Positions 2,149 through 60,021 of a stretch of DNA of 64,000 nt are shown piece after piece. This DNA is from a virus: positions 1 through 64,000 of IMG/VR virus record IMGVR_UViG_3300024999_000040; one strand, written 5' to 3'. The notes below the pieces were generated by a model, which worked only from the letters and a program-made list of their open reading frames with translations, ran no database searches and was not told the origin of the DNA. Position numbers and translations under genes: made by a program. Numbering within the stretch: position 1 is the first letter of the stretch; each line of letters starts with the position of its first letter.

Positions 2149-2163
2149 GAAGGAGGTATAAAC

Positions 2164-4830: not shown

Positions 4831-5117
4831 TAAAAACTCAATAAAATTAGCATTTTAATGGAATTTACAAGTCTTGAAAGCCTTGATATAGGCTGATTTC
4901 AATTTTGGTCAAAAACAAAATAAATTATAAAGGAATGAATTAAAATTATATAGGATATGGGAAGCAGACCACTTCCCTACCCTATTCAAAAAAAGGACGT
5001 GAATTAATGGAATACTATAACTTCTGTTTTTCGTGTGGATATTGTTTCCAAAAGATTAAGTTTATGATGTATATTTTAAAAAAATTTATGATGAAGGGAA
5101 TGAGATAAAACGGGTGG

Positions 5118-5321
5118 ATGAATAATTCCACCCTTTATAATTATGGGATGAGTATGACGAATTTATTAATCATTATATTGTTAGTAAGTATTTTGTTAAG
5201 TATGTGGATTGTGTATTTTAAGTTAAGGAAAAAGATGAGAGAGTTTCATGATTTTAATGTGGGAGAACACAGAACGATGCAACAAATGTATTTAATGTCA
5301 AATAAGAAACAAACTAAATAA
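5118..5321 (+). CDS. Small single-TM membrane protein
   Basis: One hydrophobic segment followed by a basic tail. Confidence 0.45.
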   Translation: MNNSTLYNYGMSMTNLLIIILLVSILLSMWIVYFKLRKKMREFHDFNVGEHRTMQQMYLMSNKKQTK

Positions 5322-5347
5322 TAGAGAGGGTGTTAATGAAGCAATGA

Positions 5348-5743
5348 ATGGATAAACAATTTCATAATTTATTGAAAGACAATTTAGATTCGGTGTATGA
5401 AATAAGAGATAAGTATTTTAATGGTTTATCTTTAACTCCATTGTACAATTATGAAAGGAATGAATTAACAGGAGTATATGAAGATGTGGTAAATGAGTTG
5501 GAAGTAAATGTAAATTGTCACATGTACATTTGCTTTGTAAAAAATGACGACAAAATTTATTTGAGGCACTATAATCTTGCTCAAAACAATGGCGGGAAAA
5601 AAAATAATGGTGGGGGTAAAATGAAATTTCATGTTGAAAAACATACCTTCACAAATTGGTATATGACTCTAAAATGGTTGTCAAGTTCACATCTTTATAA
5701 GCCTAGTCAAAAGAAAGATATTTTCGATTTATTGAAAAAGTAG
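5348..5743 (+). CDS. Hypothetical protein
   Basis: 131-aa ORF with upstream GAGG RBS. Confidence 0.55.
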   Translation: MDKQFHNLLKDNLDSVYEIRDKYFNGLSLTPLYNYERNELTGVYEDVVNELEVNVNCHMYICFVKNDDKIYLRHYNLAQNNGGKKNNGGGKMKFHVEKHTFTNWYMTLKWLSSSHLYKPSQKKDIFDLLKK

Positions 5744-5860
5744 AATATAAAATTTTTAAAAGATAGATTGAGCCTCATAAACTCAATCGACAAGAGTAGG
5801 AATCCTTGTACCCTACTCTTCTTTTATTGTTCAAAAAACAAGGAAATATAACATCAAGGA

Positions 5861-7237
5861 GTGGATATAATAATGGGTGGAAAAAGTTCTACATATGAAA
5901 TAATTAAAAATTTTGTGGAAATAGAATCACAAAGTGGGTGTAAATTACTAAGTAAAGAATACGTTTCAAATACTATTTTATATTTCGAATGTAAATGTGA
6001 AAATGAATTTTCTACAACATTTAATAATTTTAAAAATAATAATAAAAGACAATGTAATGATTGTGGAAAAGAAAGTGAGAAAAACAAAAGAAAACAACCA
6101 TATATAGAAGTTAAAAAATATGTTGAAAATTTAGGATATGAATTAATTGATAATGAATATATAAACAACTATACACCTATAACATTAAAAGATGAATATG
6201 GTTATTTTTATTATATAAAATTTAAAGGACTAAAATTGGGCAATATTCCTCATAAATTTAACACTTCAAATCCATATACAATACAGAATATTAAATTATG
6301 GTGCAAATTGAATAATAAACCTTTAGAATTATTAAGTGAAATATATAAAGGAAATAAGAAAAAGCTTTTATGGAAATGTTTAAAAGATGATTGTAAAGAA
6401 ACATTTGATGCAATATTTGTAAATATGGTTTCTACTGGTGAATGTGGTTGTCCTTATTGTGCAGGAGTAAGAGTAGGTTTGTCAAATTGTTTAGCAATTA
6501 AAAGACCAGAATTAATTTTAGAGTGGCATCCTACTAAAAATGGAGATTTGACTCCTTATGATGTTACTTGTGGTAGTCATAAAGATATTTGGTGGATATG
6601 TGAAAAAGGGCATGAATGGTCTTCAAAAATAAAAAATAGAAAAACAACAGATTGTCCTTATTGCTCTGGATTTTATCCTAGTGAAGATTATAATTTGGAA
6701 GTTTGCAATCCTGAATTAATTTTAGAATGGGATTATAGTAAAAATAATAAAAAACCAAAAGAATATTGTCCTGGTACTCAACAATATGCTTGGTGGAAAT
6801 GTCAAAAATGCAATCATGAATGGGAAGCCATAATTAATACTAGAACAAGAAAAACAAGACCATCTGGTTGTCCACAATGTGCAGAATCAAAAGGCGAAAA
6901 AGAAATAAACAATGTATTAACTAGATATAATAATCCATATGATTCAGAACACACCTTTGCTGATTTGATTGGTCTTGGCGGTGGATTATTAAGATTTGAT
7001 GTACCTGTGTTTTGGGATTATAAAAAAACACAATTAAGATTGTTAATAGAATATGATGGTATTCAACATTTTGAATGGGTTAAAGGTATGATGACTGAAA
7101 AACAGTTTGAAATATTACAAATACATGACAATCTTAAAGATGAATATTGCAAGAAAAATGATATAAAATTGTTCCGTATTCCCTATTGGGATTTTGATAA
7201 TATAGAACAAATTCTCAAAAAAGAGTTAAATCTTTGA
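5861..7237 (+). CDS. Zinc-ribbon repeat protein with C-terminal PD-(D/E)xK (Vsr/DUF559-like) nuclease; probable free-standing homing endonuclease
   Basis: Repeated WxC..GHEW...CPYC treble-clef motifs; C-terminal SKGE...LRFD...IEYDGIQH...KDEYC...LFRIPYW. Confidence 0.75.
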   Translation: MDIIMGGKSSTYEIIKNFVEIESQSGCKLLSKEYVSNTILYFECKCENEFSTTFNNFKNNNKRQCNDCGKESEKNKRKQPYIEVKKYVENLGYELIDNEYINNYTPITLKDEYGYFYYIKFKGLKLGNIPHKFNTSNPYTIQNIKLWCKLNNKPLELLSEIYKGNKKKLLWKCLKDDCKETFDAIFVNMVSTGECGCPYCAGVRVGLSNCLAIKRPELILEWHPTKNGDLTPYDVTCGSHKDIWWICEKGHEWSSKIKNRKTTDCPYCSGFYPSEDYNLEVCNPELILEWDYSKNNKKPKEYCPGTQQYAWWKCQKCNHEWEAIINTRTRKTRPSGCPQCAESKGEKEINNVLTRYNNPYDSEHTFADLIGLGGGLLRFDVPVFWDYKKTQLRLLIEYDGIQHFEWVKGMMTEKQFEILQIHDNLKDEYCKKNDIKLFRIPYWDFDNIEQILKKELNL

Positions 7238-13636: not shown

Positions 13637-14073
13637 AAAAAACAAATAAAGGAGGAATTTCAAAATGCAAACCAGTATATTTCTTATTGATGTACATAAT
13701 GCATCAACGACAATTCAAATAGGTAAGGTGGTTTCAGTTAATGACGCAACAGATTTATGTATACAAATTTGGGGAACATCAACTTCATTTATAGTATCAT
13801 TTGAAGCATCATTAGATGGTATAAATTTCGATACATTTGAAGGTTATAGAATTGGTGATACAACGAAGACATTAATAACCAGTGCAACAACGAAAGGGTT
13901 ATATGAATTTGATGTGACATTAGTTAAAGCATTCAGAGCAAATTTAATAGCAATAGCTAATGGAAACATAAGTGTAGCCGCTAATGGAGTAATATTAAAT
14001 GATTAAAAATAATTATAAAAGGTAGGTGATGAATTTGAGAGTGAAAAATAAAAAGAATATTTATAAATCTGAT
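13637..14073 (+). repeat. Direct repeat copy 1 (RBS, 113-aa gene and start of next gene); copy 2 at about 19014-19452
   Basis: Near-identical DNA and protein at a 5379-bp offset; homology ends at AAATCTGAT. Confidence 0.9.
13665..14006 (+). CDS. Small beta-sandwich virion/adaptor protein, paralog 1
   Basis: Highly similar to 19044..19385 (FEASLDGxNF motif); strong RBS. Confidence 0.7.
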   Translation: MQTSIFLIDVHNASTTIQIGKVVSVNDATDLCIQIWGTSTSFIVSFEASLDGINFDTFEGYRIGDTTKTLITSATTKGLYEFDVTLVKAFRANLIAIANGNISVAANGVILND

Positions 14074-16227
14074 TCAAATATGGCTAATATGTCGCAAGAA
14101 ATGAATGGAAAAGCAAGTATTATAAACTCCTCACATATTTTTGTAGATGATGCAGCGAGAGATGTTTATTTTACTGCAAATCCAACTGAAAAAGTTGAAA
14201 ACTTATTGATAAGTGTTGGAGATGGATTTCAAGAATGGAGTGGTACAGCATGGATTAGTAAAACTAAAGTGGTTGAAGATCATACTTTGAAAGTTGAATT
14301 AGTAGCTAGAGGTATTACTTGTACTCAACTAGGAATGGTGGTAAATGATAATAATGAAGGTGTTAATAATGCAAACAAACTATCGTTAGGGTTAAAAAAT
14401 TATGGTACTGTAATTGTAGACAATGTTTATTACCTTAAAGCTCCATCTTCGGCTGTTGCTGAAGGAGATATTGAAATTTATGGTATTAAAGGTGGAGAGT
14501 TTAGGTTTAATCATACCAGTTCTACGGTTATGTTTAATCCTATGTATTTTACCAGTATAAAATTAAAAAATCTTAAGATGACAAATGAGTCAGTTAACAG
14601 TGTGTTGTTTTTTTATGGGGCATCAGATTTAAGCATACATCTGACAGAAGTTTCAGTTGAAGGATGCTCGTTTAACGGTTCAATTTCTTTATATAGGCAT
14701 AGTGGCCCTGAGAACGTAAATCCATATGTCACGTTCTATGGAATAGATAGATTTGTATTCAAGAACAATGTAGTAAATAATACAACTTTAAGTTTTATTA
14801 CTCTTGAGGATGTTCCAATTCCAATGATTATTTGTGAAGGTAATACTATTAAAAATTTTAGCCATACATTCTTAAGTGTTGGTACAACAAATGGTTTAAC
14901 GTATGGTTCTCAGATTGGAACTATTAGAAGAATGGCTGAAATAAAGAATAACTATGTATACAATGATAATACTTGGTTTACTGCTGATACGGTTTATCAT
15001 ACATTTTTCTTGTATGAAGGATTTGAATGTAAGTACGAGGGAAACCATGTTGAGGGATTGAAGTCAATTTATGATGATGCGGTCTATGATGCATATATCT
15101 CTTGCGAAACTTTAATTTATATGAACAACACTTGGAAGAATAATATATGTTTTAATGCTACAAAAACAAACAATGTTCTATTGAAATCAAAAGGTTCTGG
15201 TACTGGGGGATTGCTTAAGAGATATTACAAAAACAATGTATATATTGTCGAGGAGGGTTATGCTGCGGCTGTAGGTCAGGACATTACTAATTTACGGGTT
15301 GCTTTCATGAGTTTGACTTCTGACTGTGAGGAATATGTTGTTGAGAACAATACTTTTGATGTATATGATTTACGTTTTGATGTATCTGGAAATCCGCACA
15401 GGAATTTTAAATTACTTAACAACAAGTTTAAATGTAAGTATACAGCAGGTTCTATGGTTATTTGTACAATATCTGATACACAACCAATTGAAAATATTAT
15501 TATTAAAGGCAATACTATTCAAATAGCAGAAGCAACCACATCGAAATTAAATATAGTTAAAATGAGTGATACAAGGGTAGTAAGTACCATTCTACCAAAT
15601 ATTGTGGTTGAAGATAATTATATAGATGTACCTATTTTTTATGTATTCTATACATTAGCTGCAAAAAAATTAATTTTCAGAAACAATATGATTATTACTA
15701 ACACTACAGGTAGTATTGGATTAATGTATTCAGGATTTTATAATGAATCTTTGATAGATAATAATATTGTTGAATCTCTTTTATCTACTTCATTCTATGA
15801 GGGTAGGCAGAATTATGGAAGTGGGTATAAGTATGAAAAAATTATGCTAATACGTACTTGTGTATCTGATGCTAATAATTGTCTTAATTTAAGATTTAAT
15901 CATACCACAACTACACGTACCTATTATAAACGTAAGTATAAAGTATATACCAACACTGGTATAAAAGAATTTTATTATAGGTTTAGTCTTATTTATAATA
16001 TAGATCATTGTGATATTACTTTTATTGATACAACAGATATAGAACACACCTATGCTATTGGCACATCTGAAGGGACTGGAACTTATATTAAATTGATTAA
16101 CATAGGAGATGAAACTAACACTTATACTGTACGATTCAATAACGGAGCTAGTGAGACATATCTATACGTTCCTAATTGGAATGGTGCAAAATTAAGAATG
16201 GAAATTGAAACAATAGCAACAGAGTAA
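14026..16227 (+). CDS. Tailspike-like protein with right-handed beta-helix (pectate-lyase-like) body
   Basis: Repeated IxxNNxI/V turns; shares the LRVKNKKNIYKSD leader with 19405..21195. Confidence 0.6.
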   Translation: MMNLRVKNKKNIYKSDSNMANMSQEMNGKASIINSSHIFVDDAARDVYFTANPTEKVENLLISVGDGFQEWSGTAWISKTKVVEDHTLKVELVARGITCTQLGMVVNDNNEGVNNANKLSLGLKNYGTVIVDNVYYLKAPSSAVAEGDIEIYGIKGGEFRFNHTSSTVMFNPMYFTSIKLKNLKMTNESVNSVLFFYGASDLSIHLTEVSVEGCSFNGSISLYRHSGPENVNPYVTFYGIDRFVFKNNVVNNTTLSFITLEDVPIPMIICEGNTIKNFSHTFLSVGTTNGLTYGSQIGTIRRMAEIKNNYVYNDNTWFTADTVYHTFFLYEGFECKYEGNHVEGLKSIYDDAVYDAYISCETLIYMNNTWKNNICFNATKTNNVLLKSKGSGTGGLLKRYYKNNVYIVEEGYAAAVGQDITNLRVAFMSLTSDCEEYVVENNTFDVYDLRFDVSGNPHRNFKLLNNKFKCKYTAGSMVICTISDTQPIENIIIKGNTIQIAEATTSKLNIVKMSDTRVVSTILPNIVVEDNYIDVPIFYVFYTLAAKKLIFRNNMIITNTTGSIGLMYSGFYNESLIDNNIVESLLSTSFYEGRQNYGSGYKYEKIMLIRTCVSDANNCLNLRFNHTTTTRTYYKRKYKVYTNTGIKEFYYRFSLIYNIDHCDITFIDTTDIEHTYAIGTSEGTGTYIKLINIGDETNTYTVRFNNGASETYLYVPNWNGAKLRMEIETIATE

Positions 16228-16553
16228 CTACCGCACAATAGGTAAAAATAATGCTAAAATAAAAGTTCAAAATCTACACATACTAACATAACGGATACTT
16301 TATCTGTTTCTATATAAGAGTGGTTGAGAAGACTTTACATCTTCCCTATCACTCTTTTATTTTATATTATCTTTTTCCTTTCTAGTTAATTCTCAAACAC
16401 CCAATAAAATTCGTGTTTTAATGGAAGTAAATTTTCAAGTCTGCAAATGTAGATATATCAAGGGTTTCAAATTTCAATAAAATTCTAAAATATTATAGAA
16501 AGAAGTGATTTCTCATATCTCAAATATTAAAACTAGTCATAGATAATGACATC

Positions 16554-16955
16554 GTGGACAAATATCATAAACATTATTTTAAATTATATCCTAAACGTAA
16601 GAAGAAACCAATAGAAGCCCCTACTCACCCATCTATTAATAAGTGGATGGTATTACCTAGAATACAGATGAACGCTTTGAAACAGACATGGAAAGAATTT
16701 ATAATCTGGTTTGTTGTAAATCAAGGTTTAAAAGATAAAAAAATAGAAAAATGTTCTATGACTTTTATATCTTATTTCAAAACCAAAATTCGTAAGGATT
16801 GTGACAATACTGTACCGAAATTCATTCTTGATGGAATGGCTGATGAGAATGCACAGTTGATTGTGGATGATGATTCTTTACATGTGACAAGTCTAACTCT
16901 TAAATGCGAATATGACAAAGAAAGACCAAGAACAGAAATCTATATTGAATATTAA
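16554..16955 (+). CDS. rusA: RusA-family Holliday junction resolvase
   Basis: RKDCDN..PKFILDG...IVDDD...PRTEIYI motifs. Confidence 0.7.
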   Translation: MDKYHKHYFKLYPKRKKKPIEAPTHPSINKWMVLPRIQMNALKQTWKEFIIWFVVNQGLKDKKIEKCSMTFISYFKTKIRKDCDNTVPKFILDGMADENAQLIVDDDSLHVTSLTLKCEYDKERPRTEIYIEY

Positions 16956-16972
16956 ACTAAGTAAATATAATA

Positions 16973-17566
16973 ATGTTTCACATGAAACAATTGCTTGAAA
17001 GGAGCATCAATACAATGTCTAAAGGTAAAAAGTTAAATATTTCCACTCTCAAACAGGCACATGATAAGAATTTTAATACTAAAAAGAAAATAATTGTTCA
17101 AATTGACAATAAAGATTATCCTATCCTCATAGCTGAAAAATTCGAAATAACAAAAGTTCAGGATATGATTTCTGAATTGTTAGAAGTGCATAAAACTTTT
17201 GTAGATATGAAAGAAGTTTGGAATCTTCCTATATACTCTATCTTTTTACTCTTAAAGCACTTTACAGATTTAGAGTTAGAAGGTTTATCCTATGAAGAAG
17301 CAGTAATGGTTGTAAAATATCTCACCGATTTTGAAGTTCTTGAAACTATTATTGGTGCGTTTGATGAATTTGAAGTTGCTAAATTCAATACTTATATGAA
17401 GAAAGCAAAAGAGAATGTTGAAAAGTTTGCTAAGAGTCCTGAAGTACAAGCAGAATGGCAAAATATATTTGCTGATTTGAAACAGGATTTGGGCGAGGAT
17501 TTGGAAGTTACTGAAGTTGAGTCGGAAGAAAATCAGGAAGTGGTTGAAGAAAGTACAGGTGAATAA
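16973..17566 (+). CDS. Putative tail assembly chaperone
   Basis: Helical protein with an acidic tail in a morphogenesis context. Confidence 0.4.
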   Translation: MFHMKQLLERSINTMSKGKKLNISTLKQAHDKNFNTKKKIIVQIDNKDYPILIAEKFEITKVQDMISELLEVHKTFVDMKEVWNLPIYSIFLLLKHFTDLELEGLSYEEAVMVVKYLTDFEVLETIIGAFDEFEVAKFNTYMKKAKENVEKFAKSPEVQAEWQNIFADLKQDLGEDLEVTEVESEENQEVVEESTGE

Positions 17567-17568
17567 TT

Positions 17569-17892
17569 ATGGAAGGTAATATACAATTAAAAATATCGTG
17601 TGTATTTGATAATGAATCTTCAGAATTATTTAAAGAAGAAGTTAGAAAAATAGTTAAGGATATTATTAAAGAAGAGATAGCAAAGGCTGTAAAAGATATG
17701 CCTATTCCTTATTATCCTGTATATCCAGTTTATCCAACATATCCAATGTCCCCTATTTACACTACTAATCAACCTCCTATACAAGAATATGTAACTATCA
17801 CATGTGATTGTACTGCTTCTATTGCTGATTGTGGAAATAAGATTATAGAAAGTTTAAAGAATAGTAGTAAGAAATGTGGGTGTAGTTACTGA
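17569..17892 (+). CDS. Hypothetical protein with Pro/Tyr repeat
   Basis: PYYPVYPVYPTYP low-complexity segment. Confidence 0.5.
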   Translation: MEGNIQLKISCVFDNESSELFKEEVRKIVKDIIKEEIAKAVKDMPIPYYPVYPVYPTYPMSPIYTTNQPPIQEYVTITCDCTASIADCGNKIIESLKNSSKKCGCSY

Positions 17893-18164
17893 TGTCACTT
17901 GATAAACAAAGAAAAATAAGTGATTTCCCTCAAGGTGGAATTATAAATAGCCAAGATGGTTTAAATCTTGGCTATGCTTGTATTCATAATAATGGTATTA
18001 TGTTAAATACTCAATTTGGTAGATTAAATCATGTAGTAAACAATATAAATTCATCTAATATTAACATGAGTGATTTAAATAATATTAGAATTGATTTCAA
18101 TGCTAAACCTGATGTAGAGAAAATTGTAGAAGGAATTATAACACAATTAAAGAAGGTGAAATGA
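17892..18164 (+). CDS. Hypothetical protein
   Basis: TGATG coupling with the upstream gene. Confidence 0.5.
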   Translation: MSLDKQRKISDFPQGGIINSQDGLNLGYACIHNNGIMLNTQFGRLNHVVNNINSSNINMSDLNNIRIDFNAKPDVEKIVEGIITQLKKVK

Positions 18165-18165
18165 T

Positions 18166-18657
18166 TTGGAATTCAGAACAATTAAGGAACTCAACGAATA
18201 CATTAAAAAGCAGCTAGCAGCATCTATGCAAAAAGTTGGTGAAACAGCAGAAAGAGTGGTTCGTGAGCATGTAGATTCTGACGTTTATCGTGCATATACC
18301 CCCAAGGAATATGAAGCCACTTTTGAATTACGTGAATCACTTCATACTAAAACACCAAGAATTAAAAATGATGTTGTTGAAGTCGAAGTAAAACATAATA
18401 CAGATAATATCCATTCATATGAACCTAATCAACATCATTCAGTTGTAGAAAATTATAACCCACAAGATGTTTCAGATTGGTTGCCTTACCTTGTTCATGA
18501 AGGTCAGACACATAATTTATGGGGTGATAATTCTGATGCAGCTTATTTGAAGCCTAGACCTTATTTTGATAATGCAAAAAAAGAATTAGAGCAAAGTAAG
18601 GAACATGTTGAAACGTTAAAAAGAGAATTGAATGCTAAGGGTATAAAAGTAATATAA
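18166..18657 (+). CDS. HK97 gp10-like tail-completion protein
   Basis: VY..YTP..Y..T.EL.ES and C-terminal PRPYFDNA motifs. Confidence 0.6.
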   Translation: MEFRTIKELNEYIKKQLAASMQKVGETAERVVREHVDSDVYRAYTPKEYEATFELRESLHTKTPRIKNDVVEVEVKHNTDNIHSYEPNQHHSVVENYNPQDVSDWLPYLVHEGQTHNLWGDNSDAAYLKPRPYFDNAKKELEQSKEHVETLKRELNAKGIKVI

Positions 18658-18676
18658 GAATGAAAGGAAATAAGCA

Positions 18677-18913
18677 ATGTTAAAAATCCCTGAATTTAAA
18701 ATCAATGATAAAGTATTAATCAAAGACAATCTTCTTGTTGAATTACTTCGTTTAGAATTTACAGAAGAAACAGCAAAATCTTTTTCAAAGAAGTTTACAG
18801 GTAAAAAGAAAAAGATATATGACATTTGGACTGATAAAGATTCTGAACAACAATATGCAACTATAGATTTATGCTGTGAAGTACCTTTGCAATGTTTGGA
18901 ATTGTGTCAGTAA
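18677..18913 (+). CDS. Hypothetical protein
   Basis: 78-aa ORF with RBS AAGGA. Confidence 0.5.
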   Translation: MLKIPEFKINDKVLIKDNLLVELLRLEFTEETAKSFSKKFTGKKKKIYDIWTDKDSEQQYATIDLCCEVPLQCLELCQ

Positions 18914-19043
18914 CACGATAAAATCAAAATTTCATAGGGAATTTTTAGTGAGTCTTGAAAGCCTTGTAAATCAAGGCTTTGTTTTTTATAAAAAATGCAG
19001 TTATTAACAATAAAAAAACAAAATAAAGGAGGAATTTTTAAAA

Positions 19044-19385
19044 ATGCAAACAGCAGTATTTTATTTAGATGTACATAATATATCAACGACAGTGCAAACA
19101 GGTAAAGTAGTTTTAGTGAATGATTGTACGGATTTATGCATACAAATTTCAGGAACATCAACTTCATTTACAATAACTTTTGAGGCATCATTAGATGGAG
19201 TAAATTTTGATACATTTGAAGGTTATAGAATTGGTGATACAACGAAAACATTAATAACCAGTACAATAACAAAAGGTTTATATGAATTTGATGTAACGTT
19301 AATCAAAGCATTCAGAGCAAATTTAACGGCAATTGCTAATGGTAATATAAGTGTGGCTGCTAATGGAGTAATATTAAATGATTAA
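19044..19385 (+). CDS. Small beta-sandwich virion/adaptor protein, paralog 2
   Basis: Paralog of 13665..14006. Confidence 0.7.
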   Translation: MQTAVFYLDVHNISTTVQTGKVVLVNDCTDLCIQISGTSTSFTITFEASLDGVNFDTFEGYRIGDTTKTLITSTITKGLYEFDVTLIKAFRANLTAIANGNISVAANGVILND

Positions 19386-19404
19386 AAATAATTATAAAAG
19401 GTAG

Positions 19405-21195
19405 GTGATAATTTTGAGAGTGAAAAATAAAAAAAATATATATAAATCTGATACGCAATTGGCAACTATTGCGCGGCAGAATAAAGAAGCAAGTAGTAAT
19501 GTAGCTGGCTTTAAAATTAGTATAGTGCATGATGACGGCGATACTGGTTTTGCAACAATTATGAAAGTCAGCCTTGACGCAAGAAGTTTAAAGTGTGATT
19601 TAGCTGTAAACATAGGACGTGTAGACGATGGGGTTACTGCTGGAAAATATTCAGCATCTCAATTACTGGCTTTACAGGCCGCCGGATTTGGAATACTTAA
19701 TCACGGGTGGATACACGAAGCTCCAGCCGATTTAACGACAGCAGAAATAGACAATAGAGCAGCATTAGAAAAAGCTCGGTTTGCAGAGCTTGAAATTAAC
19801 GATGCTTATGATTATTACTGTTATCCAGGCGTAATGACAACGGGTAGTTTGACATTAAAAAATTACCTGAAAAATATATATAAATGTAATCTCTGCAATA
19901 CTGGTGCGCCCGATAATACATTTCCGTTTGATACAATGGAAATACATCGCCATCCATTGCCTAATACATCAGATAATCTTGCAACTGTTACCGCTTATCT
20001 AAATGATTGTTATAAAAACAATGAATGGGCGGTTTTATTTGCTCACACAAGTAATTTTACGGTATCTACGTACTTAGATACATTGCTTGATTATATCGTT
20101 GCTCAAGGATGGACTATAACGCCTGTAAAAACGGTGATAGATCAATTTAGAAATGTAATCGAACTTGGAAACAAAGGCGGGTCACATTTTTATTTAGATG
20201 AAAACGGCAACGTTGATTTTAGTCAAGTTAATCCGCTTATATCCTTTGATGATACCATCAGAGCATCTATTGCCGACTATTTTACAAACTGTGTTACGCA
20301 TCAAATCGTTGAATACAATACAATTGCAGATATGCCCACAATAGAAACTGGAACGCTTGAAACGTATAGATTTGCCAATTATAGCACAGACAGATACGGA
20401 TATCAAAAATTCAGAAAATTCAACACTACTGATCAGTGGTTTAGAAGATGGGATGCAACAGGGGGTGCTTGGGAGAGCTGGGTTAAGTATGATGTATTTA
20501 CGGAACGTGCAACAAAAGATTTTGAAATTTTTGATGATTTCATATACCAGACATTAACTGCTGCTAATACTCCGTGGATACTAAATAAAGGCACAGATGA
20601 AACAGCAATAGCACCTGCGATCGCAGTAATAACTGAACGTGGCACAGCAAGGCTTATTTCAGGCAATACAACTGGAGGTTTAATAGCAGATAATGGATCA
20701 CAACTAGTATGTGCAATACCAGTGCAAGCGGATACGGTTGGTCTTGCTGTTGAAGCAAGATTATTTATTAGTAATATTTTAAACATTAGTGTGAATTTTG
20801 GTTTAACTGATATAACAACTCTGGAAGAACCTTTTGAAATAGGTGCAAGTGATGCGATAACTTCAAATGCTTCAGACGCTTGTTGCTTTGTATTTGATGA
20901 TGGAGCAGACACAAAAGAATGGTTTGCTTGTGCCGTAGATAGTGATGCTGACGATACAGGGAATTCTTCTACTGGAATTGCTCCTGTTTCGGGTGTAAAT
21001 CAAACATTGAGAATAGAGGTAAACAATACCGGGAATACAATAACTTTTTATATTGGTGGAGTATTAGTAAAAACTCTATCAAATGCGGGAGTTACTCCAA
21101 ACGTAAATTTATATGCAACGGTTGTTGTAAATTCTACATCAACTATAAGCAGATACGTTTCACTGGACTACATTAGCATATCTCACAACAGATAA
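19405..21195 (+). CDS. Polysaccharide deacetylase (NodB/CE4) domain protein with knob-like and beta-sandwich C-terminal domains
   Basis: SIVHDDG, NHGWIH, YCYPG and VLFAH CE4 motifs; YQKF...WFRRW...WESW knob motif. Confidence 0.7.
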   Translation: MIILRVKNKKNIYKSDTQLATIARQNKEASSNVAGFKISIVHDDGDTGFATIMKVSLDARSLKCDLAVNIGRVDDGVTAGKYSASQLLALQAAGFGILNHGWIHEAPADLTTAEIDNRAALEKARFAELEINDAYDYYCYPGVMTTGSLTLKNYLKNIYKCNLCNTGAPDNTFPFDTMEIHRHPLPNTSDNLATVTAYLNDCYKNNEWAVLFAHTSNFTVSTYLDTLLDYIVAQGWTITPVKTVIDQFRNVIELGNKGGSHFYLDENGNVDFSQVNPLISFDDTIRASIADYFTNCVTHQIVEYNTIADMPTIETGTLETYRFANYSTDRYGYQKFRKFNTTDQWFRRWDATGGAWESWVKYDVFTERATKDFEIFDDFIYQTLTAANTPWILNKGTDETAIAPAIAVITERGTARLISGNTTGGLIADNGSQLVCAIPVQADTVGLAVEARLFISNILNISVNFGLTDITTLEEPFEIGASDAITSNASDACCFVFDDGADTKEWFACAVDSDADDTGNSSTGIAPVSGVNQTLRIEVNNTGNTITFYIGGVLVKTLSNAGVTPNVNLYATVVVNSTSTISRYVSLDYISISHNR

Positions 21196-21217
21196 CTACC
21201 GTGTAAGGAGGAAAAAT

Positions 21218-21361
21218 ATGGATAAAAAAACAATAAAACCACAACTTATCGAAAATGGCGAAGGAGAAATTGCAAAAGTTCTAACTAGCATTTCCACGCA
21301 TGTCAAAGAAATGAATGAATTAGGTAAAGAAGTAAAACCGTTTAAAATTAGTATAGTTTAA
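21218..21361 (+). CDS. 47-aa hypothetical protein MDKKTIKPQLIENGEG...
   Basis: AAGGAGG RBS 6 nt upstream of the ATG; below the ORF-track size cutoff. Confidence 0.5.
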   Translation: MDKKTIKPQLIENGEGEIAKVLTSISTHVKEMNELGKEVKPFKISIV

Positions 21362-21428
21362 ATAACTCATTTTGCCAATCCCCTTATTGTGATATAATTA
21401 CTACTATAATTTATCAGTTTGCAGGGGA

Positions 21429-22076
21429 GTGGTTCTTATTAGTGTTTTAGTTGCAATTGCAGTAAAACCAAAAGATGGGTTAAAACCATACTTATTAATG
21501 GGTTCAGACTCTAAAGAAGTTTTAATCGAAGCAGTACCATTGGTAAGCGGAGAATTAGATTTTAAAATTTCTACAAATGAGAATAAAGAAAAAATTTTCA
21601 GGGTTAATGATATACTTGTTGGTATGACAGGTAAGCATGATGATACATTAATGGTATCTTTTATAGAACATCTGCGAGAAAATGACATGGAATTTGAAAA
21701 ATTATCTTATTTGAGTTTTGATTACATTAAAAAATATGTAGAAAATGAAAATCGATATGATGCATTATGTGCTGTAACAATGGGTTGCTGCAAAAATTCA
21801 AAACCGATTTTAACCCGATTCACAGTAGATAAAACAAAATTAACTGATGCTAATATCAGGATTATAGAACCTCCGGATAACAATTGTATACCTTCTTATT
21901 CTGGCAAGTCAGTTGGTTTGGATGATTTACGAGAAAAGTTCGAGAAAGGTGTAAGAGACAGTATTAACATAAATCTGGTGGCTGTTAAGAAAACCGCAAC
22001 GGAATATTTGAAGGCAGCCGCTGCACGCTATCCAGAAACATGTAACCAAAACATTCGTATCATGTATTTGAAGTAG
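21429..22076 (+). CDS. Ntn-hydrolase/proteasome-subunit-like protein
   Basis: SVLVAIA...LMGSDSK...KIFRVN.ILVGMTG resembles the N-terminal motif of proteasome beta/HslV-like proteins. Confidence 0.5.
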   Translation: MVLISVLVAIAVKPKDGLKPYLLMGSDSKEVLIEAVPLVSGELDFKISTNENKEKIFRVNDILVGMTGKHDDTLMVSFIEHLRENDMEFEKLSYLSFDYIKKYVENENRYDALCAVTMGCCKNSKPILTRFTVDKTKLTDANIRIIEPPDNNCIPSYSGKSVGLDDLREKFEKGVRDSININLVAVKKTATEYLKAAAARYPETCNQNIRIMYLK

Positions 22077-22274
22077 TAACTACCACGCAATAGGTAATAA
22101 GGTTACGGTAAAGAGACTTAAAATATAGTCTCTTTCCTTCTCTATTTCATTTAACACTATAAAATTTAGGTTTTATTTGGTATGCTATATGTAGTGGTAT
22201 AAAGTTCAGTTTATATACTATATCTTGTATATGGAATTCATTAATATTTTAACTAAATAAATATAATATTTCTA

Positions 22275-22303
22275 TTGACAAGACTTTTCTATGGTAGTAT
22301 AAT
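22275..22303 (+). promoter_or_regulatory. Consensus sigma-A promoter upstream of tRNA-Met
   Basis: TTGACA-17 bp-TATAAT. Confidence 0.75.
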
Positions 22304-22411: not shown

Positions 22412-22486
22412 CGCGGATTGGAGCAGTGGTAGCTTGTGAGAGTCATAATCTCAAGGTCAGTAGTTCGAATCTACTATCCGCAACCA
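22412..22486 (+). tRNA. tRNA-Met(CAT), initiator-like acceptor stem
   Basis: Cloverleaf CGCGGAT...ATCCGCA-ACCA; anticodon arm TGAGA-GTCATAA-TCTCA; T-loop TTCGAAT. Confidence 0.9.
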
Positions 22487-22707: not shown

Positions 22708-22736
22708 TTGACACAATTTAACTAAGGTGATATAAT
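22708..22736 (+). promoter_or_regulatory. Consensus sigma-A promoter with extended -10
   Basis: TTGACA-17 bp-TATAAT with TG upstream of the -10 box. Confidence 0.8.
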
Positions 22737-22786
22737 AATAGTGTAATCAAAAACAAAAATAATTGAAATTAAAGGAGATAAAAAGT

Positions 22787-23919: not shown

Positions 23920-23996
23920 AGGGAATTATATCAGCTGGTTAGATAGTTCGTCTGATACGCGAAAAGTCATTGGTTCGAATCCAATATTCCCTACCA
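23920..23996 (+). tRNA. tRNA-Ile(GAT)
   Basis: AGGGAAT...ATTCCCT-ACCA; anticodon arm TTCGT-CTGATAC-GCGAA; T-loop TTCGAAT. Confidence 0.9.
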
Positions 23997-24319: not shown

Positions 24320-26008
24320 GTCAACTAACCCCCACTTAAAATGCGAAAGCATTTTTGAAGTGGAGGCTTGGAGTAGAAATACTCTGTAGCAGTTGATTAG
24401 CCTCAGTAGTGAAAACTACTACGTTATGGGAAAATATATAGGTACTTCAGGATACTCCACAAGTCCTGAACTCTACGGTCTAAGACTAAACATCTCTGAG
24501 GGTAAGGAGAAGTGTTTTGGACATTAAACTTCCTAATAACATTGGCGATGTGGCTCGACCTTTATCTTTATGCTAAAGGCATTATTTATTAAGTTAAATA
24601 AAGGAGGTATTAAAGGAAACATGGTCTATATTTTAAATTTAAAAGGAGAACCTTTGATGCCTTCAACTAGGCACGGAAAAGTTAAACATCTTCTTAAAGA
24701 AGGTAAGGCAAAAGTAATAAAGAAAAACCCTTTTACTATTCAACTTTTGTATGATACTACAAATTACACTCAATTTATTACACTGGGTATTGATTCAGGA
24801 TACAGTAATATTGGGTTCTCTGCTATATCAGAGACAAAAGAACTTATATCAGGGGAAGTAAAACTCATTAGTAACCAACCTGAACGTACCAGGGACAGAC
24901 AACAATACAGGAGACAAAGACGAAATAAACTTCGTCACAGGAAGCCTCGTTTTGATAATAGGCGAAGAACCAAAGGTTGGTTAGCCCCTACTATACAAAA
25001 CAAACTAGATCAACATATTAAATTGGTTGAAAGAGTTAAATCTTTAATCCCAGTTAATAAAACAATTATTGAAGTAGCAAACTTTGATATACAAGCAATA
25101 AAAGATATTGATATTCAAGGTATAGGATATCAACAAGGTGTACAATATGGATTTTGGAACTTGCGTGAGTATATTTTACATCGTGACAGTCATATTTGTC
25201 AGAATCCTAATTGTAAGCACAAAAAAAATGCACCTAAGTTTGATTATATAAAAAGCAATATACCGTTACAGGTACATCATATTGGTTATTGGCACAATGA
25301 CCGAACAGATAGACCAGAGAATCTAATAACACTTTGTATTCACTGTCATACCTCTGCTAATCACAAGAAAGGTAAATTTCTTTATGAATGGCAGCCGAAA
25401 CTAAAATGCTTTAAATCAGAAACCTTTATGTCAATTATACGGTGGAGATTAGTAAACCTAATTCAAAATGAACACACTTATGGTTTTCTGACCAAAAGCA
25501 AAAGAATTACACTTAATTTAGAGAAAACACATTACAATGATGCTTTTTGTATTGCTGGTGGTTCAACTCAAAAGAGAGTAACCCCCTTAATGATAACCAA
25601 AAAACGCAGAAATAACCGAATACTACAAAAGTTTTATGATGCTAAGTATGTAGACCAACGAACAGGTGAGAAAGTATCTGCTTCAGATTTGCATTGTGGC
25701 AGAAGAAAACGGAATAAAAATTTAAATGACGAGAACCTAAAAAAGTATCGTGGTAAAAAAATAAGTAAAGGCAGAATAACTATAAGAACAAAACGTTATA
25801 AATTACAACCTAATGCAGAAGTAAATTATCAAGGTAAGAAATATCTTGTAACAGGTGTTGTGAATTACGGTAACTATGTAAGGTTAAAAGGATTAAAGAA
25901 GGATATTAAATCAAAAGAGGTACAATTACTTTATCTTAATACAGGGGCTTTAATCTGTTAATGTCATTCACTCCCCACTTGAAGAAGTGGGGCTACTCTG
26001 ACACAAAA
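24320..26008 (+). mobile_element. IS200/IS605-superfamily IscB element 1 (omega/HEARO RNA plus iscB, no tnpA)
   Basis: Left end GTCAACTAACCCCCACTT...GAAGTGGAGGC; right-end hairpin CCCCACTTGAAGAAGTGGGG; omega-RNA motifs CTACGTT and AACATTGGCGA. Confidence 0.85.
24570..25961 (+). CDS. iscB: RNA-guided endonuclease IscB (likely start ATG 24621)
   Basis: PLMP domain, RuvC-I LGIDSG, RRxRR bridge helix, HNH (HHI...NLITLCxxCH), RuvC-III HYNDA. Confidence 0.9.
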   Translation: MLKALFIKLNKGGIKGNMVYILNLKGEPLMPSTRHGKVKHLLKEGKAKVIKKNPFTIQLLYDTTNYTQFITLGIDSGYSNIGFSAISETKELISGEVKLISNQPERTRDRQQYRRQRRNKLRHRKPRFDNRRRTKGWLAPTIQNKLDQHIKLVERVKSLIPVNKTIIEVANFDIQAIKDIDIQGIGYQQGVQYGFWNLREYILHRDSHICQNPNCKHKKNAPKFDYIKSNIPLQVHHIGYWHNDRTDRPENLITLCIHCHTSANHKKGKFLYEWQPKLKCFKSETFMSIIRWRLVNLIQNEHTYGFLTKSKRITLNLEKTHYNDAFCIAGGSTQKRVTPLMITKKRRNNRILQKFYDAKYVDQRTGEKVSASDLHCGRRKRNKNLNDENLKKYRGKKISKGRITIRTKRYKLQPNAEVNYQGKKYLVTGVVNYGNYVRLKGLKKDIKSKEVQLLYLNTGALIC

Positions 26009-26035: not shown

Positions 26036-26500
26036 GAATTCGGTCTTTTAACGTGTTTTACTTGATGGCGGGTATGCCAACCGAAATTATCCATTAAAAC
26101 CACAACGACAACATCATAGCACCCCAAAATAAGCTTGGTTGTACGACAGTGGGAGGATAAAACACACAAATAGTTTGTTGATGTCAAATTTGTGTGAAGA
26201 GAAATCAACCATGATACACGTATAGTTGCCTGTCGTATGTGTAAAGTGAATCCTGCTTGGAATAAGCAACAGGAGAAAATCTAAACATCTATAAGGTCGG
26301 AAATGGTTCCCGACACACTTTTGTAATCGAATTCAAAATAATGGAGTGGCTTCGTTCGTTTTGAGTTTGTGAGAAAGTATCTGAGATGCAGGATATGCCG
26401 CCCTGCTGTAGATGTTTGGAAATCTATATAGAGCTTTAGGCTCAATCTTATTTTTATTGTAGAAGGAAACATCCGCATGTCTATACGATTTGCGGATATT
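26036..26500 (+). ncRNA. Candidate large, highly structured ncRNA (strand inferred)
   Basis: GC-elevated stretch without a credible gene and with many long-range complementary segments. Confidence 0.5.
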
Positions 26501-26537: not shown

Positions 26538-27608
26538 GTGGAACGAATGGCAAAAGTAGTAAAAATAAAATATTTTACAGATGAAAAGAAAGCATTAATA
26601 AATCCAGATAATAAGATTCTTTATGGTAAATATTTAAAATCAAATATTCTTAAAAATAAAGAGGTTAAGGATACAACCTATGCTATATATGAAAATTATG
26701 TAACTCAATTCTTAGTTTATTTAGCTGAAGAATGGGATAATGTTAATTTATATCATGAAGATTTTTTTGAAAATGCCATAGAAATTATAGAAGGATTTAT
26801 GTCGTTTTGTCAGGACACTTTGCAAAATAATAAAAAGGTAATTAATACTAAAGTATCAGCAGTATCTTCTTTTTATAATTGGAGTGTTAAAAGAAAAGAG
26901 ATTACATATCATCCTTTTGATGGTAAAATCGAAAGAATGAAAGGTGCTGGAGATGAAAGAATAACTAAAGATTATTTTCTTACTGAAGAACAAATTTTGA
27001 CAGTTGCTAAAGAATTAATTACAAATCCAAAATTTGATATTCAAGATAGGATATTATTTCATTTAGCAATAGATTCAGCTAATCGTATTGGAGCAATTTC
27101 AAAACTTACTTTATCAGCATTGGATATAGATAATATGCTATTCGAAAATATACGTGAAAAACGGGGGAATCGTGTAGAAGTTGTCTTTGAGGAGTTATGT
27201 AAATCCTACATTGAAGAATGGCTTATTATGAGAAAAGATATGGATAATCTTACGATTGATTCTTTATTTATGACTAGATATCATAATGAATATAGGATTA
27301 TGACAAGGAGTACTATATCTGACAGAGCTAGAAAAATAGGTACTTTATTAGGAATTGAAGATTTCCATATGCATTGTTTTCGTAAGACTTCTATAAATAA
27401 TGTAATGCTTTTAAGTGGTGATATTGAAATGGCAAAAGAACACGCTGGGCATAAATCGACTGACACAACTTTGATCTATATCAAAAAGAAATCGAAAACG
27501 GAGATCAGAGAAAAATTAAAAGAATTAAAAGAAAAGAAAAAGGCTGAAGCAGATAAAGTTAAACAACCAGAATTAATAACTCCAATAATTAATGAAGAGC
27601 AGGAATAG
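26538..27608 (+). CDS. Tyrosine recombinase (XerC/D-like)
   Basis: Catalytic set intact: SANRIG (R), EKRG (K), HCFR (HxxR), AGH...TTLIY (H, Y). Confidence 0.85.
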   Translation: MERMAKVVKIKYFTDEKKALINPDNKILYGKYLKSNILKNKEVKDTTYAIYENYVTQFLVYLAEEWDNVNLYHEDFFENAIEIIEGFMSFCQDTLQNNKKVINTKVSAVSSFYNWSVKRKEITYHPFDGKIERMKGAGDERITKDYFLTEEQILTVAKELITNPKFDIQDRILFHLAIDSANRIGAISKLTLSALDIDNMLFENIREKRGNRVEVVFEELCKSYIEEWLIMRKDMDNLTIDSLFMTRYHNEYRIMTRSTISDRARKIGTLLGIEDFHMHCFRKTSINNVMLLSGDIEMAKEHAGHKSTDTTLIYIKKKSKTEIREKLKELKEKKKAEADKVKQPELITPIINEEQE

Positions 27609-28434: not shown

Positions 28435-31400
28435 ATGGCTAACGACAACTCACAACTTTCCATATTATTACGTGCTAAATTGGATTCCGCACAAGAATCA
28501 TTAAAATCAATAAATTTAGAAATTGATAAGCTTTCTAAAAACCCTGCTTTAAGTAAGTTAAAATTAAAAATTGACATTGATACTAAAAGTGTTGAAGATT
28601 TATTATCTAAGATAAATAAATTACAAGCTGGATTTAATGGCTCTGGTGGTGGAACTGGTTCTAAACCTTTTATAGATGATAATTTAGTAACTGAAAAAAT
28701 TCAAAGAATCAATAATTCTCTTGAACGGTTAAAAATAAATAAAGATAAAGTTTTTGCTGATGTAGGAGTAATAGCAGAAGTTAACAGACTTAAAGAAATG
28801 GAAACTTCATTTAAAAAAGGTGAAGTTACTGCTAGACAATATGCATTACAAATGGATAATGTACGGACTAAAGTTGCTCAAGTTTCTGGTTCGTTTCAAA
28901 ACGTAAATAAAGATGGGTATTCATTTGTTCAAATGCTTGAACTTGCTGCAAAAAAAATAGCAATTTGGGGCTTGAGTACTCAATTGGTGTACGGAAGTTT
29001 CAAACAACTAAAACAGGGAATTTCTTACATTTCCGAATTATCGAATTTTCTCAACGAGATTCAAATTGTAACAAATAGAACTAGTTCTGAAGTTGATAAT
29101 CTAGCAAAAAGTTATAATAACCTTGCAAGAGAAATGAAAGTTACTACAAAAGAGATTGCAGGAGAAGCAGCAAATTTGTACAGACAAGGTTTGGATGATA
29201 CTCAGGTCGAAGAAAGAATGAAGGGTATTATTCAGTATGCGAAGATAAGCAGTATTTCTTTGGCTGATTCTAATAAAATTATAACTGCTACTGCTAATGC
29301 AACTGGACAGTCAATTCAAAAAATTATAGATATTTTTGCATTATTGGGAGATACTACCAGCTCAGGTGCAGATGAAATTGGTGAAGCCCTACAGAGAGTG
29401 GCTTCTGCTGCTGAAAATAGCAATCTATCTTTAGAGAAAACTTCAAGCTGGTTGGCAACAATTTCTAGTATTTCCAGAGAAAGTTCATCAACTATAGGAC
29501 GTTCTTTAAATAGCATTATTTCACGATATGAATCTATAAAAGCTAAAGGCTTTAATGAAGAAGACGCTACAAAAATTAATGATGTTACTAAAGCTCTTTC
29601 TGCAATTAAAATAAATCCCACAGTAAATGGACAATTACGTGATTTGGCTGAAGTTATGGATGAAGTAGGTTCTAAGTGGGATGGATTAACTAAAAATGAA
29701 AAGGCATATATAGCTACTACGATGGCGGGTTAACAAAAAAAGCCCTTTTATACAGTAATGTATATCAATAGTGAACCATATCGGTGAAAGTCTTAGCCGT
29801 AAAGGTCGGAAGATAACGCCGAGATAAGAAATATATAAATATAATGGAGGTAGAATGAGATGAAAAATACATCTTTGTTATCTAATCAATTAGAAATAAT
29901 ATTAGGTGGTCTTTTAGGGGATAGTTCAATTAGAAAAAATACTAATCAAATTAATTTTGGTCATTCAGAAAAACAGTTCGAATATTTAAGTTGGAAACAT
30001 AATGAATTAAAAAGCATAAGTACAAATATAACAAAAGTATTAGTAGATAATAAATATATACGATATAATTTTGAAACTTTAAAAAAAGTTAGTGAAGAAT
30101 TTAAATTTATATCATTATTAATATTTGATAAATTTGGTAAAAAAAGAGTTAATAGAAAATGGTTGAATCAATTAACTCCTTTATCTTTAGCTATATGGTG
30201 GATGGATGATGGTTGTTTATCAATACATAAAGGCAACAGATATGGTAAATTATGTACTCATTGCTTTTCATATGAAGAGCATGAAATAATGAAACAATAT
30301 TTTAAAGTTAAATGGGATATTGATATTCAAATTAAATTAGAAAAAAATGAATATTATTTTTGTAGATTAAATGTAGAAAATTTAAAAAAATTAATAAGTA
30401 TTATATACCCCTATATAATACTTATACCTAATATGATTTATAAAATTGATTTAAATTATATTAACAATGTTAATTTAGGAGATTTTGAAGTAATATATAA
30501 TATTATAAAAAATTCTAAATTAACATAATATATATTTCAATCTTAACGACTGAATGTTCACCTCCTATTTTATAGGATGAAGTCACAGTCTGAACATCTA
30601 TGGAAACATAGAGAGTTGAGGTCAAGTGTAAAGACACTTTTAAGAAGAACCTTAACCACCATATATTAATATGGTCAGTAAGCGAAAGCTGAAAGTAACA
30701 GAATGACATTCCAACGTAATAGATTTATAACCCTCATGAATAATTATGATGATTCTCTTAAAAATTATGAGAATGCTATGAATTCAGCAGGGACAGCTTC
30801 TCAGAAGTTCGCTATTTACCAAGATTCTGTTCAGGCAAAATTGGATGAAGTAACTGCATCATGGGAAGGATTTTGGCAAAATAGTATTAATTCTTCTGTA
30901 ATAAAAACAGTGTTAGAATTATTATCTCAATTAATAGATGGATTTGATAATGTCGGTAGAATAATATTAATTACTTCTGGAATATTTATTGCATTTAAAT
31001 CTAAGGCAATTATTGATTTTATTGTTGGTATTGCCGCCACTATAAAAGGGTTATTTACTTTTACGGCTGCTGCTAACGGTGCTGCCGTTGCTGCTTCTAC
31101 TTTTCAAAAAGCATTAGGTATATTTGGATTAATTACAACTGCCATTACTTTACTGGTTGTTGCTATTGATACACTATCAAATAAACAGGAAAATCTTAAT
31201 AAACAAATTCAAGAAAATATTAATAAATATCAACAACAAAAATCAGCTATAGATCAATTAATTTCATCATATAAACAAAATGCCGAATTAGCAAAAACAG
31301 ATGAAGATGCTAAAAATACTCTTTATGATATTCAAGCTGAATTAGTTACAATATTTGGAGAAAGTGCCAAAGCAATAGATTTAGAAAGTGGTGCTATTGA

Positions 31401-53006: not shown

Positions 53007-53633
53007 TTGAAATATTACAAAGTATTTATTACACATGTTATAGAACTTGACCCATTAGAAATTCGTGCATCATTAGTTTCTGCTACAGGAAAATCAATTA
53101 TTAAGAAATTTAAAAATTTCATCAATTGTAATTTTTTCTCAGGTAGTAAAACAGTTGGTTGGTTAATATCTGAAGGCAAAGTTTTATCAGAAAGACATGA
53201 ATATAAAATATGGAAAGGGAATCCAAAAGGCAGTTTGATAGTCTACAAAGATGGTTCAGTTTTCGTAGGTTGGAAATATGATTCAGAAATTGTAGCTGAA
53301 CTTGATAAGATATGGTTCTGTTGTCAAGGGTTTAACTTATTCCCTACTGGTATGGATGTAATTTCTGGAATAAAGAAAGAGGGATTTGACCCTAATCAGG
53401 TAGGTTATACAACGAACAGAATTGCTATTGGCTATAATAAGGTTACTAATAAAATAGTAATTACTGTAAGACCTTCTAGTAATGCTCAAAGGGCTGTTTC
53501 TACTATGAAAAACTTAGGTTGTGATGGTAATGCCATATGCCTTGACAGTGGAGGAAGCGTCAATTTAGGATTATTAGGGAAGTTGATATTTTCAACGTCT
53601 AGGAGATTAACAAACATCTTATGGTGGAATTAA
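53007..53633 (+). CDS. Phosphodiester glycosidase (NAGPA/DUF2233-like) protein
   Basis: INCNFF, RIAIGY, AICLDSGGS motifs. Confidence 0.7.
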   Translation: MKYYKVFITHVIELDPLEIRASLVSATGKSIIKKFKNFINCNFFSGSKTVGWLISEGKVLSERHEYKIWKGNPKGSLIVYKDGSVFVGWKYDSEIVAELDKIWFCCQGFNLFPTGMDVISGIKKEGFDPNQVGYTTNRIAIGYNKVTNKIVITVRPSSNAQRAVSTMKNLGCDGNAICLDSGGSVNLGLLGKLIFSTSRRLTNILWWN

Positions 53634-59994: not shown

Positions 59995-60021
59995 AGTTCT
60001 CCTTTTCATTAACAAAAAATA

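Follow-up and report, generated by a model that had tools for sequence, protein, structure and literature searches.

The window analysed here, the whole stretch of DNA under study, comprised the first 64 kb of the 148.7-kb IMG/VR virus record IMGVR_UViG_3300024999_000040, which has a G+C content of 29% and a completeness of ~76% (CheckV). Judging from its genes, the record represents a large uncultured siphophage of the SPbeta architecture, and no DNA or protein match to this phage was obtained among GenBank phages. The region of interest contains two modules, in each of which a small gene of the YomS/XepA type is followed by a gene for a putative receptor-binding enzyme. A short element, termed E, lies at the 3' ends of three genes of the same region, one of which is a passenger gene located behind the second module.

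The duplicated unit and the enzyme bodies

The 5' parts of both modules were formed by a unit of ~440 bp, which comprised a ribosome-binding site (RBS), the YomS-like gene, an intergenic Shine-Dalgarno (SD) sequence and the first ~13 codons of the next gene. Copy 1 (13637-14075, plus strand) and copy 2 (19013-19454, plus strand) were 88% identical at an offset of 5379 bp (E value of 1e-153). This similarity was beyond chance, and the duplication reported in a preliminary description of this DNA was thereby upheld. Copy 2 began just 3' of a terminator (18958-18980), and no copies beyond these two were found in the 148.7-kb record. The identity was patchy. The 5' half of the small gene was 70-85% identical between the copies, the intergenic region and the leader of the enzyme gene reached 93% (67/72), and the unit included a run of 51 perfectly identical nucleotides (13980-14030 in copy 1). 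A pairwise comparison of the small, 113-aa genes gave a ratio of nonsynonymous to synonymous divergence (dN/dS) of 0.23 and a dS of 0.43. Both copies have been kept under purifying selection, and the dS value implies that the duplication was not recent.

The open reading frames (ORFs) of the enzymes were listed from 14026 and 19405. However, the SD sequence AGGTAGGTGA was located 5-6 nt before the TTG codons at 14035 and 19414, which were therefore considered to be the likely starts, giving the common peptide MRVKNKKNIYKSD. The first ~13 residues were identical in both enzymes, and the next ~15 were similar but diverged. By direct reading, the leader had no hydrophobic core and was for this reason not regarded as a Sec signal. 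The homology between the two copies had been described as stopping at a defined site. Instead, an identity of 93% up to 14075 (19454 in copy 2) was followed by 52% over the next 27 nt (background of ~30%), then by a 3-nt indel and a further common GCAAGTA, and the protein similarity between the two enzymes persisted to approximately residue 30. Such a gradual decay would be expected if a diverged homologous N-terminus had been recombined in.

The site proposed earlier at this junction was a palindrome, CGCAAT-N8-ATTGCG (19454-19473, plus strand), which encodes TQLATIA in the N-terminal peptide. It was indeed present in copy 2, but copy 1 had no counterpart at its junction. Perfect 6-bp inverted repeats with a spacer of <=12 nt occurred 8 times per kb; of all 40-nt windows, 21% contained one, a share that dropped to 2% when each arm had to include at least 3 G/C. 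The fold z-scores at the junctions were +1.5 for copy 1 and -1.6 for copy 2. The palindrome of copy 2 was thus within chance.

The N-terminal peptides were further compared among the enzymes encoded after YomS-like genes in other loci. Most of these started with M-x-(Y/F/V)-(K/Q/N)-(D/N/E)-K, a basic residue and (Y/F/M)-K, a pattern that the start of SPbeta YomR did not fit. The proposed in-gene site encodes a motif of the D-(S/T)-(N/Q)-(L/M) type inside the N-terminal peptide region, and D-(S/T)-(N/Q)-(L/M)-(A/I) recurred at varying distances from the start in several such enzymes (loci L007, L010 and L017). It had also been suggested to look for the same leader on other bodies. When leader residues 1-40 were searched against 5.8 billion proteins, the sole match was the query protein, and a degenerate DNA pattern of the leader found nothing in IMG/VR, so that there was no material for this comparison.

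Receptor-binding enzyme 1 (14035-16227, plus strand) is a 733-aa protein consisting of the leader, an N-terminal module at residues ~22-80 and a right-handed beta-helix body. Its AlphaFold2 (AF2) model had a pLDDT of 84 and a pTM of 0.82. The best Foldseek matches were the tailspikes of HK620, Sf6, AM24 and APK09, with a probability of 1.0 and TM scores of only 0.2-0.3. On the basis of this model, the body was assigned a tailspike-like beta-helix fold. The homologues of the protein began aligning at approximately residue 80-90 and carried membrane anchors, SLH-like starts or BppU baseplate domains in place of the leader. Additionally, residues 22-139 were common to an otherwise different 407-aa protein.

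Receptor-binding enzyme 2 (19414-21195, plus strand) is a 596-aa protein in which the leader is followed by a NodB-like deacetylase domain starting from GFKISIVHDDG, a beta domain and a ConA-like lectin domain ending with HNR and the stop codon. The match to PF01522 was weak (17.1 bits against a gathering cut-off of 23.1), a homologue with 61% identity (P0002) was annotated as PF01522, and the HDDG and HGWIH motifs were recognized by direct reading; the model of the deacetylase domain was only moderate. Residues 380-593 were modeled with a pLDDT of ~90 and matched legume lectins and GH16 proteins in Foldseek, with E values from 4e-9 to 1e-7 and TM scores of 0.55-0.70 by target. The model therefore predicts a ConA-like lectin/glucanase jelly-roll fold for the C-terminus. 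The full-length homologues had N-termini of other kinds, 28-140 aa in length, and in each of them the joint immediately preceded GFKISI. The lectin domain was also found behind other bodies, a beta-helix among them, and H-(N/D/K/T)-R was the conserved C-terminus of the lectin-domain family.

The earlier observation that unrelated bodies stand behind a common start was confirmed: one was a beta-helix, the other a deacetylase-like domain with a lectin. A fixed breakpoint was not found. The junctions in the homologues were scattered (just before GFKISI and at approximately residue 80-90, with one more module at residues 22-139), and scattering was the pattern that the preliminary description had itself named as speaking against a fixed site. 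In the wider families there are several module borders, and these differ from the palindrome.

The YomS-like protein and its genomic context

The two small genes (13665-14006 and 19044-19385, both on the plus strand) encode 113-aa proteins sharing 84% amino acid identity. An exhaustive HMMER search with the 113-aa protein returned 223 clusters at E<=1e-3, of which most were ~110-aa proteins and some were repeated domains within large proteins. A profile built from 40 homologues matched YomS (PDB 6i5o, E value of 3e-18) and the C-terminal domain of XepA (6i56, E value of 3e-17) over the full length, and the database homologues carried the label PF27453 XepA. By these sequence comparisons, the 113-aa proteins belong to the YomS/XepA family and should form a beta-sandwich. 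With the 113-aa protein as the query, one IMG/VR locus and two metagenome loci were found, with identities of 45-48%.

In the SPbeta annotation, yomS is followed 1 base later by yomR, encoding an XkdV-like minor tail protein, and then by yomQ, yomP, yomO and yomN. The order continues with the tyrosine recombinase gene yomM, the tape measure gene yomI, yomH and yomG, and Dit is also encoded in this block. The same order was observed in the window: a tyrosine recombinase gene in the yomM position (26538-27608, plus strand; PF00589, E value of 1e-15) was followed by a tape measure gene in two pieces (28435-29733 and 30703-34140), the gene of Dit at 34196 and that of a tail protein with a YOMG_N domain at 36283. 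Locus L039 repeated the SPbeta order. The YomS-like/enzyme module thus appears, by gene order, to occupy the tail-fibre slot of SPbeta, 5' of the tape measure gene.

Further, the neighbours of YomS-like genes were compared in 14 distinct contexts. The YomS-like gene stood directly before a fibre or enzyme gene in 9 of them. It was followed by a Pel9A-like beta-helix in L006-L009 and L039, by a GDSL esterase and a beta-helix in L010-L012, by a GDSL protein in L017, by a 752-aa protein in L036, by a deacetylase and a pectate-lyase-like protein in the P0003 contig, and by YomR in SPbeta. The other five contexts (L003/L016, L005, L013, L037 and L038) had no fibre or enzyme neighbour, and a tie to tail enzymes is thus not common to all members of the YomS/XepA family. 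A tyrosine recombinase gene was located 3' of the module in SPbeta (L018, 40301-41302) and in three of the related loci examined (L039, 6451-7476; L036, 9024-10028; L006, 10755-11717). No reported function was found in the literature for the YomM-type recombinase downstream of these modules. The BLASTP match between the window recombinase and SPbeta YomM was not significant, the two having position and family alone in common. A separate arrangement was seen in L037 (a 105-kb contig, 5001-6245), where the YomS-like gene, followed by the gene of a 298-aa coiled protein, belongs to the head module and separates the prohead protease gene from that of the major capsid protein.

YomS and XepA have been described as pentameric discs from 'lytic cassettes', with a role unknown in the literature (PMC6834076; PMC8812541), and XepA was found to be cytotoxic (PMC6834076). 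It may be proposed from this that the modules are lysis or envelope accessories whose enzymes are released or exported with the YomS-like protein at a late stage of infection and strip or modify wall polysaccharides, thereby aiding release or blocking superinfection, the common leader being a targeting or partner signal. Such a function would agree with the location of the L010-L012 module, which is surrounded by genes for acyltransferases and esterases and lies ~1 kb 3' of a GH25 lysozyme gene. It would also agree with the cellular origin of the close homologues of body 1, which are membrane-anchored or SLH proteins. However, the leader did not read as a Sec signal, the module lies in the tail-fibre slot, the fold of body 1 is that of a tailspike, and BppU baseplate fusions occur among its homologues. 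Moreover, the amidase endolysin gene of the window (53621-54580) is far from the YomS-like/enzyme modules. We considered an accessory role of this kind to be unlikely.

The 3' element and the origin of the modules

The preliminary description had also reported a motif following three stop codons, and this observation held. The element E was longer than first described, ~30 nt, and consisted of TAACTACCR, then YRYAATAGGTAA and an A-rich stretch. Its core, TAACTACC, was located at or after the stops at 16225, 21193 and 22077. CTACCRYRYAA had three occurrences in the genome, all of them at E sites, and CRCAAYAGRTAA was found only at 16234, 21184 and 22086, when 0.09 occurrences were expected. Copy A (16225-16254, plus strand) is composed of the stop codon TAA, CTACCG, CACAATAGGTAA and a decayed RBS/ATG. 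Copy B (21184-21222, plus strand) contains the H-N-R-stop codons, CTACCG, and the RBS and ATG of a relic ORF. Copy C (22077-22106, plus strand) is followed by a terminator hairpin (22110-22135). Copies A and C matched at 19/21 nt, and copy B shared with copy A 9 exact bases and ~70% identity over 38 nt. At 21184, CRCAAYAGRTAA corresponds to the last codons of the 596-aa gene, H-N-R-stop. Since E carries a stop, an RBS, an ATG and the H-N-R-stop codons, it was read as an inherited stop/intergenic/RBS junction that has decayed in copies A and C.

The segment between copies B and C (21218-22076), reported earlier as a passenger, was confirmed as such. It starts with the relic ORF (21218-21361, plus strand), which has a strong RBS and encodes 47 aa beginning with MDKKTIKPQL, an N-terminus of the same anchor type and similar to the start of the L039 enzyme (MDDKILKSRL), and ending with KPFKISIV and a stop. 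A 17-nt exact repeat, TTTAAAATTAGTATAGT (19510-19526, plus strand; partner at 21341-21357), codes for FKISIV among the opening residues of the deacetylase body. By its sequence, the 47-aa ORF resembles the remaining 5' stump of a third gene of the deacetylase type. The passenger gene itself (21429-22076, plus strand) encodes a 215-aa proteasome-beta/Ntn-hydrolase-like protein that is not tail-related; an Atlas feature score of 0.96 was obtained, and the TM scores were 0.73-0.81 to clusters of which a minority (20-27%) carried PF00227. A promoter-like TTGCCA...TATAAT was recognized by eye at ~21373-21399, before this gene. A transposon target-site duplication was also considered for the 884-bp segment and was rejected, as no transposase was found and no terminal inverted repeats were evident at its ends.

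Earlier, the constant 5' unit, the palindrome and the 3' motif had been interpreted as a shufflon- or integron-like site-specific exchange. The part concerning a constant 5' unit joined to unrelated bodies stood, whereas an exchange at the palindrome was not supported and no defining feature of shufflons or integrons was found. In a modified form, the YomM-like recombinase (26538-27608) would act on the E core, and perhaps on the in-gene site, so that receptor-binding bodies and passenger genes would be inserted, excised or inverted 3' of the constant leader. E occurs three times in 148.7 kb, always at the 3' ends of unrelated genes and in one region. Copies B and C are direct repeats around the 884-bp passenger segment, while copy A looks like an unoccupied site, which would fit a core-mediated insertion. 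The reverse complement of E matched the in-gene site (19466-19479) at 12/14, as had been noted before, and a tyrosine recombinase gene lies 3' of the module in SPbeta, L039, L036 and L006.

Several results, however, argued against a site-specific reaction. Copy 1 lacked a counterpart of the in-gene site. All three E sites folded no better than shuffles (z-scores of +0.08 to +0.74) and had a 4-5-bp dyad only, with no hairpin, and no E-like sequence was found near the recombinase gene. If the interval from 19466 to 22093 were inverted, the leader would run straight into a stop codon; the longest frame on its minus strand is a junk frame of 50 aa, and all the genes are on one strand. The 12/14 match is real, but matches of at least 12/14 to 14-mers of the 22077 element occurred at ~5 unrelated places of the genome outside the E copies, and the motif had been freely chosen. 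Two scans of IMG/VR for E gave 2 and 15 matches, and none of them was at comparable gene ends beyond the chance expectation, contrary to the earlier suggestion that the motif would mark the ends of such genes elsewhere. The 15 matches of the second pattern were all out of frame in unrelated contigs, and one of the 2 matches of the first pattern (L019) was at a stop before a hairpin, within the chance number. Together with the scattered body junctions of the homologues and the explanation of E as an inherited intergenic junction, these data make a recombinase acting on E very improbable. It was kept at a low figure owing to the tidiness of E and to the repeated presence of a tyrosine recombinase 3' of the modules. 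In the improbable event that it is true, a YomM-type exchange at TAACTACC would constitute a phage-borne cassette system for host-range genes in SPbeta-like phages.

At the other extreme, the short motifs may reflect no mechanism at all. E would then be the 3' edge of an ancestral duplicated unit, and coincidence would account for both its third copy and the match inside the gene. Copies A and C match as two ends of one duplicated unit would, and this genome of 29% G+C abounds in inverted repeats and in 12/14 matches. Copy B is not readily accommodated in this way, as it marks the end of yet another gene, the third, at a distance of only 884 bp from copy C, and is unlikely to have arisen by chance, with ~1.5 occurrences of TAACTACCR expected per strand in the whole genome. 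Pure coincidence was accordingly judged improbable.

We proposed that the region probably consists of two paralogous SPbeta-type modules, each combining yomS with a receptor-binding gene, whose enzyme bodies have been exchanged by general recombination. This proposal is based on the observed duplication and synteny, on the families and folds assigned to the proteins, and on the mosaic structure of their homologues. Recombination scars point in the same direction, namely the 47-aa relic with its 17-nt exact repeat and the relic H-N-R-stop codons in E. A place in the tail is suggested by the tailspike fold of body 1 and its homologues fused to BppU baseplate domains, as well as by the YomS/XepA match, the SPbeta gene order, the 9 of 14 contexts and the related start peptides.

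According to this proposal, the module was most likely duplicated, or a related module was acquired. Domain replacement would then have come through general recombination between related phages, homologous where the flanks were common and illegitimate elsewhere. The conserved flanks would be the yomS-like gene with the leader on the 5' side and the ~30-nt stop/RBS intergenic element on the 3' side. The leader residues may form a short N-terminal peptide by which the enzymes attach to the virion, possibly with the YomS-like protein as a partner. If so, the virion would carry two surface-glycan specificities, a beta-helix depolymerase and a deacetylase-lectin.

Some observations weigh against this proposal. 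Three unrelated genes (the beta-helix, deacetylase-lectin and proteasome-like ones) end exactly at TAACTACCR, and the passenger segment is bounded exactly by the FKISIV junction and by the stop plus E. Such boundaries are tidier than random illegitimate recombination predicts. The 12/14 match of the reverse complement of E to the in-gene site is also awkward for general recombination: a match of this quality near the junction has a nominal chance of ~0.3%, before allowing for the free choice of the motif. The collections searched yielded no close relative of the window phage, and the scatter of the junctions is consequently read from the wider families and not from the lineage of this phage. 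Finally, XepA and YomS have been described as lytic-cassette proteins of unknown role (PMC6834076), and both the presence of the proteins in the virion and the binding of YomS to the leader are predictions.

Overall, the YomS/XepA family was placed beside receptor-binding enzymes in many phages, mostly together with a related short N-terminal peptide, and we offer the hypothesis that tail enzymes have YomS-type proteins as their partners or adaptors. A large uncultured phage of a low-G+C host may thereby carry two glycan specificities, and the shufflon- or integron-like interpretation was corrected as unsupported.

Neighbouring features and known systems

Two more fibre-like genes (287 and 888 aa) were found at 1285-4830 of the window. 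Their products share the N-terminal pattern K(N/R)G...(A/N)...P..GEP...D, and neither gene has a YomS-like gene in front. The motif TTAACTAA-N5-7-ATATAAT occurred three times 5' of genes (16951-16974, 22247-22270 and 22716-22739) and may be a phage-specific promoter element. A tRNA-Met gene (22412-22486) is preceded by a perfect TTGACA-17-TATAAT promoter (22275-22303), and a tRNA-Ile gene is located at 23920-23996. Between the fibre modules and the recombinase gene, at 24320-25961, a HEARO RNA (Rfam RF02033, 118 bits) lies directly 5' of the gene of a 463-aa HNH protein (phrog_119); the pair resembles an IscB/omega-RNA-type element. A skipping-rope RNA (RF02924, 64 bits) was detected at 26286-26414, just 5' of the tyrosine recombinase gene at 26538. 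The window also encodes several HNH proteins and two tyrosine recombinases in total, and the tape measure gene is split by a LAGLIDADG endonuclease gene (29860-30528). On the minus strand (57964-60015), a 683-aa protein with HD, DEAD/Helicase_C and Cas3-like C-terminal domains is encoded, which by its domain content is a putative phage-encoded Cas3-like helicase-nuclease.

The arrangement was compared with the known systems of variable receptor-binding genes. It resembles the G segment of Mu and the C segment of P1 (Gin/Cin) and the R64 shufflon (Rci) in having a constant N-terminus, variable C-termini and a recombinase gene nearby. Unlike these systems, the window contains no alternative bodies in inverted orientation and no matched inverted sites at both junctions, as only copy 2 has the 12/14 match. 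Moreover, its motifs follow stop codons and not the starts of variable segments. The likeness to integron cassettes (IntI, attI, attC) consists in a short motif at the 3' ends of consecutive unrelated genes and in one passenger segment between direct motif copies. Integrons differ by their folded attC sites and IntI-type arrangement, neither of which was seen in the window, where one 'cassette end' is the native stop codon/RBS junction of a gene and the recombinase nearest to the E array is a generic PF00589 protein encoded 4.4 kb downstream. In the phage module theory, short conserved intergenic sequences, such as the boundary sequences of lambdoid phages, can serve as crossover points when related phages undergo general recombination. 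E differs from the lambdoid boundary sequences in that it was seen here within one genome.

A closer likeness is to the B. subtilis prophages SPbeta (yomS-yomR-yomQ-yomP) and PBSX (xkdV-xkdW-xkdX-xepA), in which a small YomS/XepA gene also adjoins a tail-fibre gene and is placed in the same way with respect to the genes of a tyrosine recombinase, a tape measure, Dit and a YomG-type tail protein. Unlike in these prophages, the module is present twice in the window and the fibre is replaced by the beta-helix and the deacetylase plus lectin bodies; the N-terminal peptide also differs from that of YomR. Phages with multiple tailspikes (CBA120 with TSP1-4, K1-5/SP6, G7C and the Klebsiella phages with several depolymerases) combine conserved N-terminal anchors with exchangeable catalytic bodies. 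They display several specificities per virion, and their mosaicism results from recombination at domain borders. The window modules share with them a constant N-terminal part joined to unrelated C-terminal depolymerase or esterase bodies. However, the common part in the window is ~13-30 residues long instead of a folded anchor domain of 100-300 aa, and its leader was duplicated together with a separate small gene encoding a beta-sandwich protein.

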